Assembly: GCA_963709585.1 (NCBI GenBank)
Contig: CAVPXI010000006.1
Span: 224,001 to 288,000, forward strand
DNA: 64,000 nucleotides
Source: Candidatus Dormiibacterota bacterium
Lineage (GTDB): Bacteria; Chloroflexota; Dormibacteria; Aeolococcales; Aeolococcaceae
Reading direction: 5' to 3'
The position numbers and the translations under genes were made by a program. This document shows, piece after piece, positions 5,220-64,000 of the stretch. Position 1 is the first letter of the stretch; every line of letters starts with the position of its first letter. The notes beneath the pieces are model-generated. The model had not been told where the DNA came from. It saw only the letters and a program-made list of their open reading frames with translations, and did not search any database.

Positions 5220-8200
5220 TCAGGCACGCGCTTGTTGAGCCTCGGCCGCCGCTCCGGCGTCGAGCATGAGGGCGTCAACACGTTCGATCCACGGCGCGGC
5301 GGCGAGTTCGACGAATGACGTCCGCGCGGGTACGAACAACGCTTCGGCCTCGCCGCGCCGGCCACGATGCACGAGTGTGTCGCCGAGTTCCAATCGTGAG
5401 ACGGCGACCCAGAACGGCATCTGCCGCTGCTGAAACGCTGCGATCGCAGCGAGCGATTCTCGCATCGCGTCCTCTTCACGTCCCTCGAGCTCATCGAGGC
5501 GCGCGCGGAACCGCAGGATATGGGCATGCACGATCGGCCACACCGCGAGCGGGAAGCGTTCGGTTACCGCCTCGAGTAGCCGGCGTACCATCTTGAGGTC
5601 GCCCACGGCGAAAGCGGCTTCCACCGCCTCGACGATCGCCCAGCGCGAACCGTCGACAAAGTCCGAGGCGCCGCTGAAACGCTTTACGACGTCACCCATC
5701 AGCGCAAGGGCTTCACCGCTGCGCCCTTGCGCGCGGAGAATCGCGGAGCTCGCGGCGTCATGCGAGAGTTGATACTCGGGTCCCGCTCGCGCGCAGATGT
5801 CGGCCAAACGCTCGACGAGCCTGCGCGCATCGGGCTCCTCCCCGCGCCACACGTGGGGCCACGCCGCGAAGACCAGCTCGGCTCCGAGCAGCAAGTCCAC
5901 CACCACCACTTCTTTGGCAAGCAAGTCGGCCACCACGCCGCTGGCTTCATCCCAACGACCGAGGTCCACCAGCACGGGTATCCGCCCGATGAGAAATTGG
6001 ATCTCGTCTCGACGCAGTCCCATCAACCGTGCGAGGTCGAGCGCTGCGGCGGTGTATTCTGCCGCGCGCGCGGGTTCGAAACCCTGTAAAGAGGCAGCCA
6101 GGTTGTTATACGCACGCAACGCCGCTCCGTGAAGATCCGACGCAAGAGCCTGGTCGAGCGCACACGTCAGCAGGGCACGCGCCTCCTCGTGCCGTCCGCG
6201 ACCGCCGAGGATGAGTTCCTTGGTATTGACCGCCTGGCAGAACACCTGCGCATGTCCGTGTCGCTCGGCGAAGTCCAGGGCAAGTTCGACCCGCTCCATG
6301 GCGACGACGCCGCTGCGGCCGGACAGAACCATCCGGCGCGCGACCTCCGCCGCGACCACCGCCAGGTCCTCCTCGTGGTTGGCATCGCCAAACTCCACCG
6401 CGCTGAGCTCAACGAACGCGCGCTCCATCCGATCCGCGGCTTGGTCACGCTTCAATTCGTGAGCATCGATTTCGGCCAGGGTGATCGATGTCCGAGCAGC
6501 CGCGCCGAGACGACCGGCCGCCGCGTGCAGCGCAACCGCCTCGTCGAGATGCCGCCTGGCCTTTTGTGCATGGACCTGCTGCCACGCCATCTGTCCGGCG
6601 CGAGCGTGCAGCGTGGCCAGGTCAGCGGCGTCAGCGAGCTCAAGCGCACGTTCGTAGTAGTGCTCGGCGGACGCGGCGGCAGCGAGCGATGCTGCATGGT
6701 CGCCTGCTCGCACCAGCGCATCACGTGCACGCTGGCGGAGTCCCCCTGCGTCGAGGGCATCAACGTCAGCCTCGAACGCCTCGAGGAGGTGCGAGGCGAT
6801 GACTTCGGCAACTCCTTCCTCCTCGCTCCACGCGCTCTCCAGGTATGCGGCCGCGCTCAGGTGGCGCACCTTGCGATCGCGTCGGGACAGTGTCCCGTAC
6901 GCGACGCTCCGCACCAGGTCTTGCACAAAGACATACTGGCCGCGCTCGGGTGATCTCGGGTCCGACTGGATGGCAAGCAGATCTTTGCTGACCAGCGTGG
7001 CGAGGCCCGGCTCGACTGTGTCCGTCGCGAGCGCCGTGACCGCCCGCAGCCCTGCGGCGGTAAAGGATTTGCCGAGGACCGCCGCATCCTGCAACAGCTG
7101 ACGCTCGGCACCACCGATGCTGTCCAGCCGTGCGGCGATCAGAGCGTGGAGGGTCTCGGGGACCTCCAGCGAGTTCGAGCGATCCCTCGACGTGGAACGT
7201 GCCGCCCCTCGCGACGAGGAGGCCGCGGTCCATCAGCATCCGCACCGTTTCGACTGCGTAGAGAGGCACGCCCGCGGCGCGCTCGAGAATGCGCGCGCTC
7301 AGGTCGTCGGGAAGGCCTGGTGCCATGCCGGCCAGCAGCTGCGACATGGCCTCAGGCGGAAGCGGATCCAGAGAGAGCGAGGTGGACCCTCGCTTGCCCG
7401 TGCCCCAACCTGAACGACGATCGGCCATCTCCGGGCGCGCCAGCGTGATCACAAGGATCGGGGAGTTGCGCGACCACTCGAGGAGGTATTCGATGAAGTC
7501 AAGCAGACCGCTATCGGCCCATTGCAGATCCTCGAACACAAGGACGGTGAGGTTCTCTGCAGCGAGGCGCTCGAAGAAGAAGCGCCACGCCGCGTAGAGA
7601 TCGCGCGGATCCGTGGCGACGCGCTCCTCGAGACCGACGAGGTGCGCGAGGCGGGGTTCCACCCACCGCCGCTCCTCACCCGGCTCGACGAATTCCTCGA
7701 CGGTACGCCGCAACTTCTCACGCGCCAACTCCGGTGGCTCGTTGTCGAGAATGCCGGCACGCATACGCACCATCTCGCTCAGCGCCCAGTAGGCGACACC
7801 ATCTCCGTAGGCGAGACAGCGCCCGCGATGCCACCAGATGGGTTCCGTGACCCCGTCGACGTACTTGAAGAACTCCCAACCGAGGCGCGACTTCCCGACG
7901 CCGGCAAGGCCGACGATCGAGAGCAGGCGCGCCGTGCGCTCCTCGCCGGTCGCGTGCAGGAACTCCTTGATCAGTCGCAACTCCCGGTCGCGTCCGACGA
8001 ACGGCGGTTCCAGTCCGGTCGGGCGGAGCGCCCCTCCGGCCGCCGCAACGACGCGTTGCGCTCGCCACAGACGCTCCGGTTCAGGCTTTCCCTTGAGCTC
8101 GTGCACCCCAGTGTCCTCGTAAGCGATCGCGGCTTCCGTGGCGACGCGAGTCCCGTCACCGACATAGACAGCTCCGGGCTCAGCCGCTGCCTGCACGCGA

Positions 8201-8799
8201 GATGCAGTGTTGATGAGGTCGCCGGCGACCATCCCCTCGCCTCTCACTCCGACGCTGACCGCGACTTCGCCGGTCATCAGCCCCGCTCGGGCCTGCAGAC
8301 CGGCCGCACCGACCTCGTCGCCAAATGCGACGACGGCATCGACCAGCTCGAGCGCTGCGCGCACCGCTCGCTCGGCGTCGTTTTCTTGACTGGTGGGCAC
8401 GCCCCACACGGCCATGACAGCGTCGCCGATGAACTTTTCAACCTGGCCACCGTAGCGAGCGATGATCGTGCGCGCGGTGTCGAAGTAGCGACTCAGGAGT
8501 TCGCGGACGTCCTCAGCGTCGCGCTGCTGAGAGAGTGGTGTGAATCCCACCAGGTCGGCAAACAGCACGGTCACATGGCGGCGTTCGGTGAGACGCGCCG
8601 GCTCGATATGGGCTGGCGCAGATGAGGGGCTCGTCCGCGAGGGTTCCGCCGACAGCTGTGCGCCGCACCCGCCGCAAAAACGCTCGTCCTCGTCGTTCGG
8701 CGCCCCGCAGGCGGGGCAAGGCCGGTCCAGAGAGGAGCCACATTGGCCGCAAAAGCGCCGGCCCGCCCGGTTTGCGGAACCGCAGGCGGTGCAGGTCAT
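5220..8799 (-). CDS. Double zinc-ribbon / class III adenylate cyclase / STAND AAA ATPase / TPR protein; apparent +1 frameshift at about 7173, probably a sequencing error
   Basis: Four CxxC; FADLVGFT, EKFIGDAV, GDLINTASR; GLAGVGKS, VFEDLQWAD; removing one base gives SLDSLEVPETLHALIAARLD, continuing into ORF 5220-7094. Confidence 0.9.
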
Positions 8800-62105: not shown

Positions 62106-64000
62106 TGGCGGTGTTCGAGCCCGGGCAGATTCATCCCATCGAACTCGAGGCGGAGATGCGCGCGTCCTACATGGACTACGCGATGAGCGTGATCATCAGC
62201 CGCGCCCTGCCGGATATTCGCGACGGGCTCAAGCCGGCACAGCGGCGCATCCTCTGGGCGATGCTCGACACCGGGATGACCGCGGGGGCGCGCTATCAGA
62301 AGTGCGCCGCCGTCGTCGGCGAGGTCCTCGGCAAGTACCACCCGCATGGTGATTCGGCGGTCTACGACACGCTCGTCCGCCTCGCGCAGCCGTGGGTGAT
62401 GCGCTATCCGCTCATCGACGGCCAGGGCAACTTCGGCTCCGTCGACGGCGATCCGCCCGCCGCGTACCGGTACACCGAGGCCCGCATGACCTCGGTGGCG
62501 ATGAGCCTCGTCGACGATATCGAGAAGGATACTGTCGACTTCGGCCCGAACTTCGCGAACGTGCCGGGGGTGCGCGAGCCGTCGGTGATGCCGTCGCTGC
62601 TGCCGAATCTCTTGGTCAACGGCGCGAGCGGGATCGCGGTCGGCATGGCGACCAACATCCCGCCGCACAACCTGGGCGAGATCTGCGACGCGGTGATCCG
62701 TCTGATCGACGACCCCGACACCACCACCGAGGATCTCATCCGCATCGTCAAAGGGCCGGACTTCCCAACCGGCGGGATCATCTACACCCGTGACATCGCC
62801 AACGTGTACGGCACCGGCCGTGGGCGGATCGTGATGCGGGCCCAGGTCGACTTCGAGGAGTCGAAGTCGGGACGCGAGCAGATCATCGTCCGCGAGCTCC
62901 CCTACCAGGTCAACAAGTCCCGGTTGATGCAGACCATCGCAGAGCTCGTCAACGACCGCAAGATCGACGGCATCGCCGACCTGCACGACGAGTTAGGGCG
63001 CGAGGAGAAGGTGCGCATCGTCATCGAGCTGAAGTCGAATGCGCGGCCGCACACGGTGCTCAACAACCTCTACAAGCACACCCAGCTGCAGATGACCTTC
63101 GGTGCACTGATGCTCGCCATCGTCGACGGCCGGCCGCAGGTGCTGAGCCTCAAGGCGATGCTCCAGCACTACATCAGCCACCGGCGCAACGTGGTCACCC
63201 GACGCACGCGGCACGAGCTGGCAACCGCGCGCGAACGGGCGCACATCCTCGAAGGATTGACCATCGTCCTCGACAATCTCGACGAGACGATCGCGATCAT
63301 CCGTGGCGCGCAGGACGAGAAGTCCGCGCAGACCGCTCTGGAGCAGCGTTTCAGCCTCACCGAACGGCAGTCGAAGGCGATTGTCGACCTTCGCCTGGGG
63401 CGGCTGACGCGGCTCGAGAGCGGCAAGCTCCGCGAGGAGTACGAAGAGCTGATCAAGAAGATCGCTCAACTCGAGGACCTGCTCGCCAATCCGCGCCTGA
63501 TCGACGGCGTCATCAAGGACGAGGTCACCAACCTGCGCAGGCGTTTCGCCGACCCGCGGCGCAGCGAGATCCGTCACGACGAGCTCGAGATGAACGAGGA
63601 AGACCTGATCCCACAGGAGCAGGTCTTCGTCACCCTCACCCATCGCGGCTACATCAAGCGCATGTCGCTCGACAACTACCGCGCGCAACATCGCGGCGGC
63701 AAGGGGGTCGTCGGCGCGCGTCGCTCCACCGACGAGGACTACATCGAGCACTCAACAACGGCGAACACGCACAGCGACATGCTGTTCTTCACCAATCGAG
63801 GTCGCGTGTTCCGGCTGCGCACCCACGAGATCCCGGACGTCAAACGCCAGGCCAAGGGCATCCCGATCATCAACCTCATCGAGGTCGACCAGGGTGAGAA
63901 GGTCACCGCACTCATCGACATGGAGGTCTTCAGCGACGAGCAGTACCTGGTGATGGTCACCAAGCTCGGGCAGATCAAGAAACTCCCGCCGCCGCCTACG
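62105..64000 (+). CDS. gyrA: DNA gyrase subunit A (partial, runs off the window)
   Basis: [31 protein letters not shown], GyrA-box QHRGGKG. Confidence 0.96.

Follow-up and report, generated by a model that had tools for sequence, protein, structure and literature searches.

Apparent gene breaks at GASTC in a soil Dormibacterota-like genome: consensus errors of assembly at a probably methylated motif

Introduction

Why should genes such as gyrA, gyrB and pckA appear broken, or carry odd residues at usually conserved sites, where the sequence reads or nearly reads GAGTC or GACTC (GASTC, S being C or G)? The question is raised by 64,000 nucleotides of Candidatus Dormiibacterota bacterium (assembly GCA_963709585.1, here G000; contig CAVPXI010000006.1, here C6), G000:C6:224001-288000; this whole stretch is called the window, and site coordinates are window positions unless a contig is named. 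G000 comprises 3.52 Mb in 24 contigs at 67% G+C, is estimated to be 88.8% complete, and is treated here as a soil Dormibacterota-like metagenome-assembled genome (MAG). An initial annotation, made from the window sequence, had attributed the breaks to long-read basecalling errors at a modified GASTC/GANTC motif, the genes themselves being intact. We confirmed the observation and found support for the interpretation.

The other genomes of the genus used for comparison share 84-91% DNA identity; the closest, G045 (300 contigs), is about 95% identical across C6:195559-303578. No claim is built on the unpublished genomes G021, G026 and G030. For a check against public sequencing runs, Logan contigs of runs X1, X2, X3 and X6 (three studies) were aligned to 7001-27000; these four were taken from 20 public runs that, in one search, contained part of 10001-20000. 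No sequencing platform is recorded for these runs. Contigs of X1 are near-identical to the window, differing in one example by two other letters and one gap over 2,079 bases. Breaks were sought across the genome with a codon log-odds model trained on 484 long open reading frames, which searches for frame jumps in coding potential, and with a more lenient test, in which the extra base is removed and a single frame must then score across the site. The strict scan recovers one of the four +1 frameshifts listed in the initial annotation and the lenient test two of the four; the genome-wide counts given below are floors.

Results

Independent sequence

The initial annotation named twelve positions, and the letters it reported are present at all of them. 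At its four +1 frameshifts (7171, 14519, 15333 and 43119), plots of G+C at third codon positions (GC3) switch frame and relatives have one base fewer. The runs read the unbroken form at those of the four that they cover, and all such readings listed here were at full depth. In a minus-strand adenylate-cyclase/AAA_16 regulator gene (8907..5223; this and other genes are named by their Pfam matches), the window has GAGTTC at 7171..7176, with one extra T and a false +1 frameshift, and the three runs with depth (X1, X2 and X6) omit base 7174. All four runs omit 14522 from the GAGTTC at 14519..14524 (one extra T; G045 reads GAG-TC), and the three with depth (X1, X2 and X6) omit 15334 from the GAACTC at 15333..15338 (one extra A), where G045 and six of six relatives' loci have G-ACTC, the latter as GG-ACTC. 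Both are false +1 frameshifts in the minus-strand gene or genes upstream of an SMC_N/AAA_23 ATPase gene. Directly downstream of the start codon ATG in a Zincin_2 peptidase gene, GCAGTTC stands for GAGTC at 16710..16716; 16711 and 16714 are each omitted in both runs with depth (X1 and X3) and in G045, and the two extra bases conceal the true start of the gene.

Substitutions behaved in the same way. The minus-strand TAG at 12823-12825 in the AAA_23/SMC_N ATPase gene, which had been suspected to be CAG, is a false stop: there is no GC3 frame change there, and the AACTC at 12825..12829 is GACTC in all four runs, in G045 and in four more relatives, with G at 12825 (relatives read CTGACTC). In pckA (PEPCK_ATP), GAGTT for GAGTC at 19936..19940 makes a Ser read as Leu; C stands at 19940 in all four runs and in G045, and GAGTC in five of five relatives' loci. 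The AACTC at 25569..25573 is likewise GACTC, with G at 25569 in four of four runs and in G045, and the AACTC at 7727..7731 is read GACTC by both runs with depth at 7727 (X1, 13.3/13.3; X6, 5.1/5.1; X2 and X3 had no depth). Every GASTC-type position in 7001-27000 that relatives had predicted to be wrong was confirmed by the runs (7/7: 12825, 14522, 15334, 16711, 16714, 19940 and 25569). At the breaks and odd residues it is the assembly consensus that errs; independent sequence lacks the errors, and the genes in this stretch are unbroken in contigs from four runs and three studies, as the initial annotation had expected.

The remaining differences of X1 look like strain variation, 36 of the 40 rows shown not being at GASTC. 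Away from GASTC, G<>C transversions are over-represented among the differences between X1 and the window (22 of 77 listed changes), and two clusters lie at 18389-18401 and 18617-18704; the cause may be variation between strains, or X1 contigs that belong to a second strain or organism. Two G homopolymers are longer in the window than in G045, at 19349-19355 (7 versus 6) and 34144-34150 (6 versus 5). The difference at 19355 is real divergence, because X1, X2 and X3 agree with the window.

Genome-wide excess and motif

Two changes recur in the assembly at GAGTC and GACTC: either T replaces the last C, seen from the other strand as G>A, or a single T or A is inserted. Insertions leave a strong trace genome-wide. 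The frame scan returned 214 '+1' and 214 '-1' signatures, and GAGTTC, GACTTC, GAACTC or GAAGTC was found in 80 of the former versus 5 of the latter (Fisher p=5e-22). Of all hexamers occurring 100 times or more, GAGTTC/GAACTC ranked first at +1 signatures (56/2519, background 0.15%, p=1e-44), ranks 2 and 3 being taken by two hexamers that overlap it; the strict scan gave 14/1993 for GACTTC/GAAGTC, 0/439 for GAATTC and 0/896 for GATTTC/GAAATC. With one base deleted, 87/2519 occurrences of GAGTTC/GAACTC and 25/1993 of GACTTC/GAAGTC were recovered, as compared with 0.2-0.5% for 13 of 15 control hexamers (the other two being GAGAAC, 0.67%, and AAGTTC, 1.07%); GAATTC (2/439) and GATTTC (3/896) were at background level. 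The '-1' signatures were set aside: no motif occurs in them, and they are probably gene junctions or noise.

Substitutions were counted in direct alignments to G045 (97,786 aligned bases), which were used instead of k-mer count differences since the latter overstate insertion errors. GASTC in G045 faced GASTT in G000 35 times and the reverse occurred 4 times (p=3e-7), made up of 26 versus 2 for GAGTC to GAGTT and 9 versus 2 for GACTC to GACTT; GAWTC (W being A or T) was balanced at 3 versus 3 (GAATC 1 versus 2, GATTC 2 versus 1). By this count 35 of 166 GASTC sites (about 21%) are affected, against an overall divergence of about 5%, and C>T following GAGT is the most asymmetric change among all 256 four-base contexts. 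With three or more other genomes used to polarise the changes, C>T specific to G000 was found at the last base of 17 of 93 ancestral GASTC sites, as compared with 180 of 21057 for all C and 1 of 113 for GAWTC. Word composition of the whole genome is shifted in the same sense, Markov observed/expected ratios being 0.73 for GACTC, 0.77 for GAGTC, 1.26 for GACTT and 1.27 for GAGTT, with controls near unity (GAATC 1.03, GATTC 1.02).

The motif is GASTC, not GANTC. The initial annotation had allowed for both; the first part stands, and the second falls since no test revealed an excess at GAATC or GATTC. Extension of the motif by fixed flanks was also rejected, errors being seen with every flanking base, though there is a modest preference for C before the G (17/61) and for G after the C (16/51). 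Scored as G>A on the first base, among sites either unchanged or so changed, 25 of 113 GACTC and 9 of 97 GAGTC are affected. The change to AASTC is equivalent to GASTT on the other strand, a purine/pyrimidine transition beside A, and the error, given in the initial annotation as C to T at the last base, is better described as hitting the G immediately 5' of A on the opposite strand.

Assembly type

Within the genus, the signature is limited to few-contig assemblies. Lineage-specific C>T at GASTC was found at 17/93 sites in G000 (24 contigs), 8/78 in G008 (5 contigs) and 3/34 in G049 (6 contigs), and at 3/397 sites combined in the many-contig genomes G007, G015, G017, G045 and G050 (110-430 contigs). 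The k-mer ratio of GASTT to GASTC agrees (2.09 in G000, 1.6 in G008 and 1.52 in G049, as compared with 0.81-1.27 in many-contig genomes), and the GAWTC control ratio is flat. At one locus aligned to 43982, G049 reads AACTC where G017 and G050 read GACTC, a G049-private error of the same type adjoining a G000 site. In other taxa, the GASTT/GASTC ratio was 1.29 in 30 long-read-style loci versus 1.46 in 34 short-read-style loci; these loci carry distant homologues of the first methyltransferase described below and were sorted by contig-name style only.

Candidate methyltransferases

A methyltransferase or other modifier elsewhere in the genome had been predicted from the window, and the gene content fits: two intact, candidate beta-class N6/N4 methyltransferases (PF01555; 144 and 95.5 bits) are encoded 2 kb apart on contig C7. 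The first lies in the open frame C7:583009-584196 and the second at C7:586185-586979; motifs IV and I read DPPF and CAGSG in the first and DPAY, a variant, and CGSGS in the second. Many relatives match the first protein only from near residue 90, for which reason its real start is placed there and its likely coding part at 583276-584196. The roughly 90 Arg-rich codons upstream of most relatives' matches (C7:583009-583275), where relatives have TGA stops, are probably GC-rich and non-coding rather than an N-terminal domain. The pair is surrounded by housekeeping genes (Pterin_bind, acyl-CoA dehydrogenase, MMPL). Of 40 other genomes in the genus, 39 yielded the first methyltransferase, and in most of these the second lay about 2.7 kb from it; given this near-universal presence, a within-genus correlation of the pair with the signature is impossible.

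G000 has two further methyltransferases, a PF02384 enzyme on C10 and a C5 methyltransferase on C4. Neither was found in G049, and they were found weakly or not at all in G008, both genomes being 72-79% complete. As the PF02384 and C5 enzymes were not found in all genomes with the signature, the beta-class pair is the shared candidate. Searches of G000, at its 88.8% completeness, found no Dam-like PF02086 protein and no DndC (TIGR03183), and only a sub-threshold match to PF07669. The likeliest mark would be N6-methyladenine (m6A) at GASTC, and its likeliest writers one or both of the C7 enzymes.

Affected sites in the window

The window holds 24 substitution-type and 7-8 indel-type sites alongside 85 intact GASTC, of which 4327 remain in the genome; that many sites are intact had been remarked before. 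At the substitution sites relatives keep the unaltered motif or, failing that, the unaltered base. Among those listed in the initial annotation, relatives have G or C in place of A or T at 12825, 19940, 28812, 31013, 54161, 60380 and 62994. Outside the stretch covered by runs the evidence is that of relatives, G045 included unless otherwise said.

Near the start of the window, AACTC stands against GACTC at 4796..4800 and 4840..4844 on the basis of G045 only. AAGTC stands for GAGTC at 27501..27505 and 35999..36003. AACTC replaces GACTC at 36569..36573, 38009..38013, 38044..38048, 48838..48842 (G045; G008 also has G) and 58463..58467 (G in eight of eight relatives), and also, with weaker support from G045 and G007 only, at 35251..35255. 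GAGTT replaces GAGTC at 41027..41031 and 52847..52851, and GACTT replaces GACTC at 43978..43982. A GAGTTC at 43119..43124, close to the 3' end of a QueG-like gene, has one base (43121) more than all relatives and makes a false +1 frameshift outside the run-covered stretch; its corrected form is inferred, because the relatives are themselves without GAGTC there.

Two HisKA_3 histidine kinase genes are affected. One has AACTC for GACTC at 28812..28816; the other has AAGTC at 31013..31017, where relatives read GATTC or GACTC (G045 is unaligned here) and a conserved Ser is read as Leu. A suspected missing base after the GACTC at 32515..32520, in a kinase gene, remains putative: a GC3 frame change and a '-1' frameshift signature are found at 32520, but alignment to relatives is poor and the site lies outside the run-covered stretch. 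The two kinases are tandem minus-strand paralogues (28451-30652 and 30652-32883), one with a GAF domain, and in both the same Ser>Leu artefact of GASTC type falls at the homologous position.

The minus-strand Ku gene (53662-54519) carries three sites: GACTT for GACTC at 54157..54161, which the initial annotation had marked as possible and where relatives have C at 54161; AAGTC for GAGTC at 54221..54225 (G in eight of eight relatives); and GAGTT for GAGTC at 54396..54400. GAGTT for GAGTC is found in gyrB at 60376..60380 (C in eight of eight relatives) and in gyrA at 62990..62994. A further break in gyrA, missing from the list of the initial annotation, is new here: at 63981..63985 the window has AACTC with one base fewer than relatives (AAGAA-ACTCC versus AAGAAGACNCC), a false -1 frameshift supported by the frame scan and by relatives. 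Between gyrB (59101-61089) and gyrA (from about 62105) lies plsX (FA_synthesis, 352 bits; 61092-62102), its start overlapping the stop of gyrB; a gene inserted between gyrB and gyrA is unusual.

Discussion

What, then, made the errors? We consider it probable, with good confidence, that they are long-read (nanopore-type) consensus errors at GASTC sites bearing m6A, written by one or both beta-class methyltransferases of C7. In a soil Dormibacterota-like host, the A of GASTC would be methylated on each of the two strands. When the strand carrying 5'-G-m6A-S-T-C is read, the G before the modified A would be called A, which appears on the other strand as C>T at the final base; alternatively a base would be added at the modified step (GACTC to GAACTC, GAGTC to GAGTTC) or, more rarely, the G would be dropped. 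Such miscalls would be strand-specific, and at metagenome coverage the consensus would flip at a fraction of sites, here about one-fifth; that it flips at only this fraction would follow from finite and uneven strand coverage, if the miscalls are indeed strand-specific. The link to few-contig assemblies, together with the published RA/TY form (R, purine; Y, pyrimidine) and G>A/C>T direction of nanopore errors, argues well for this account, which is essentially that of the initial annotation. Three reports bear on that form: ambiguous purine/pyrimidine positions in Oxford Nanopore Technologies (ONT) Kit 14 data have the minimal motif RA/TY and are removed by the polymerase chain reaction (PMC11610573), G2A/C2T errors are strand-specific at modified motifs (PMC11610603), and G2A is the dominant R10 error class near motifs (bioRxiv 10.64898/2026.01.14.699587).

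Several points weigh against methylation by the C7 pair as the cause, or temper the evidence for it. The modification has been deduced from assembled sequence, and the description of G000 as a long-read assembly derives from contig counts, its platform not being on record. G016, in 20 contigs, is almost free of the signature (2/101) despite having the same methyltransferase pair. An attempt to tie the first methyltransferase to the signature through its distant homologues was abandoned, as long-read-style carriers showed no signature. A REBASE-predicted GASTC enzyme turned out to be specific for GAWTC (PMC6700114), and middle-base specificity is not predictable by homology (PMC6700114; PMC8919816). 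The C5 methyltransferase of G000 (C4:347724-348632) would make 5-methylcytosine (m5C) on the last C possible for G000 itself. The MAG may have been built from the sample of X1 or of X2, which would make that run less than fully independent; X3 and X6 come from other studies. Finally, position 10691 was examined as an error and not counted: only X1 omits the base, and X2 (0/4.63) and X6 (0/5.2) agree with the window. Here, a few codons before a stop, 10689-10694 reads GATCTC in the window, X2 and X6 and GACTC (one T fewer) in X1, either a real indel polymorphism or an error.

A modified cytosine is the strongest competitor of m6A, though we regard it as unlikely. N4-methylcytosine (m4C) or m5C on the last base of GASTC could be called T, or have a T added before it; on this view the observed change is a C>T of the modified base itself. 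PF01555 also includes N4-cytosine enzymes (PDB matches 8s9n and 1boo). Asp at motif IV marks N6-adenine enzymes, N4-cytosine enzymes usually having SPPY/F, and both C7 proteins have Asp in that motif. As to m5C, searches for the C5 methyltransferase found none in G049, G045, G016 or G015 and a counterpart of only 32% identity in G008, yet G008 and G049 carry the signature. In favour of cytosine, one strong G2A enrichment was reported at a motif associated with 4mC (bioRxiv 10.64898/2026.01.14.699587); against it, the minimal error motif RA/TY is a purine ambiguity beside A (PMC11610573).

We give little credence to a basecaller or polisher error provoked by the GASTC context without DNA modification. 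In its favour, an A2G/G2A bias does persist, at a lower level, in amplified DNA; against it, in the same report, the errors of R10 beyond those of amplified DNA are concentrated in methylation motifs, at about 0.70 percentage points within motif units versus about 0.002 outside them (bioRxiv 10.64898/2026.01.14.699587). Long-read-style MAG loci of other taxa lack a raised GASTT/GASTC ratio (1.29 versus 1.46), which argues against a generic context error, as does the near absence of the signature from few-contig G016. Real mutation or decay targeted to GASTC, as by deamination of methylated C, with true pseudogenes in the strain, can be dismissed almost entirely: C>T is the direction of deamination and the changes are confined to the lineage of G000, but near-identical contigs in four public runs have the intact form, deamination makes no single-base insertions, gyrA, gyrB and pckA would be damaged, about 21% of GASTC sites have changed against a divergence of about 5%, and the signature recurs independently in G008 and G049 and in no many-contig assembly.

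Consensus errors of this kind matter mainly for quality control. Extrapolation from the roughly 98 kb compared with G045 puts the whole genome at about 1,250 substitutions plus a few hundred indels, about 1,500 errors in total, with gyrA, gyrB, pckA and Ku among the affected genes. Such errors would be annotated as pseudogenes, lower completeness scores, and distort analyses of dN/dS (non-synonymous to synonymous substitution rates) or of single-nucleotide polymorphisms. Their presence in G008 and G049 suggests a lineage-wide problem for long-read soil MAGs, one that motif-aware polishing would remove. The signature is also an indirect, testable pointer to a conserved GASTC adenine methylation system; a literature search found no methylation-motif report for the phylum. 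A bolder proposal, which we advance tentatively and hold to be somewhat less probable than its negation, is that an orphan pair of beta-class adenine methyltransferases, syntenic genus-wide and with relatives across the phylum, methylates every GASTC on both strands. If so, an uncultured soil phylum would possess a housekeeping, CcrM-like epigenetic mark, and the errors of long-read assemblies could serve as a free read-out of that mark in public MAGs.

Comparison with known systems

M.MlyI is a known GASTC-specific methyltransferase (PMC4081073). The MlyI/PleI/BstNBI Type IIS systems, whose restriction endonuclease site is GAGTC, share the five-base target found here, and one enzyme can treat the quasi-palindrome as symmetric and mark both strands (PMC4081073). 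An AlwI-family endonuclease (PF09491) was not found in G000 (88.8% complete), but none of 14 control genomes matched either. Unlike the MlyI systems, the candidate pair is conserved across the genus, set among housekeeping genes and apparently orphan-like.

The pair resembles the CcrM family (GANTC and its GAWTC/GADTC variants; PMC8919816) in its predicted beta-class PF01555 membership, its conservation in a lineage and its putative five-base target of the GA-N-TC type. Unlike CcrM, it comes from a lineage outside the Alphaproteobacteria and is accompanied by no error signature at GAWTC; of the four GANTC words, GAATC and GATTC are free of the signature, a result that concerns errors and not methylation. 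Neither C7 protein is a CcrM equivalog, their scores against NCBIfam NF050803 being 73.3 and 76.9 bits as compared with a cut-off of 830.

The errors themselves are most like the methylation errors of nanopore sequencing described for isolates with ONT R10.4.1/Kit 14 chemistry: they are bound to a motif, are transitions at the base 5' of A, affect only a fraction of motif sites, and are absent from independent (non-native or short-read) sequence. They differ in their motif, GASTC, and in coming from an uncultured soil lineage and a metagenome bin. Many of the errors here are, moreover, frame-breaking single-base insertions, and the word 'frameshift' does not occur in PMC11610573. The kind of artefact is already known; GASTC in Dormibacterota is a new instance of it.

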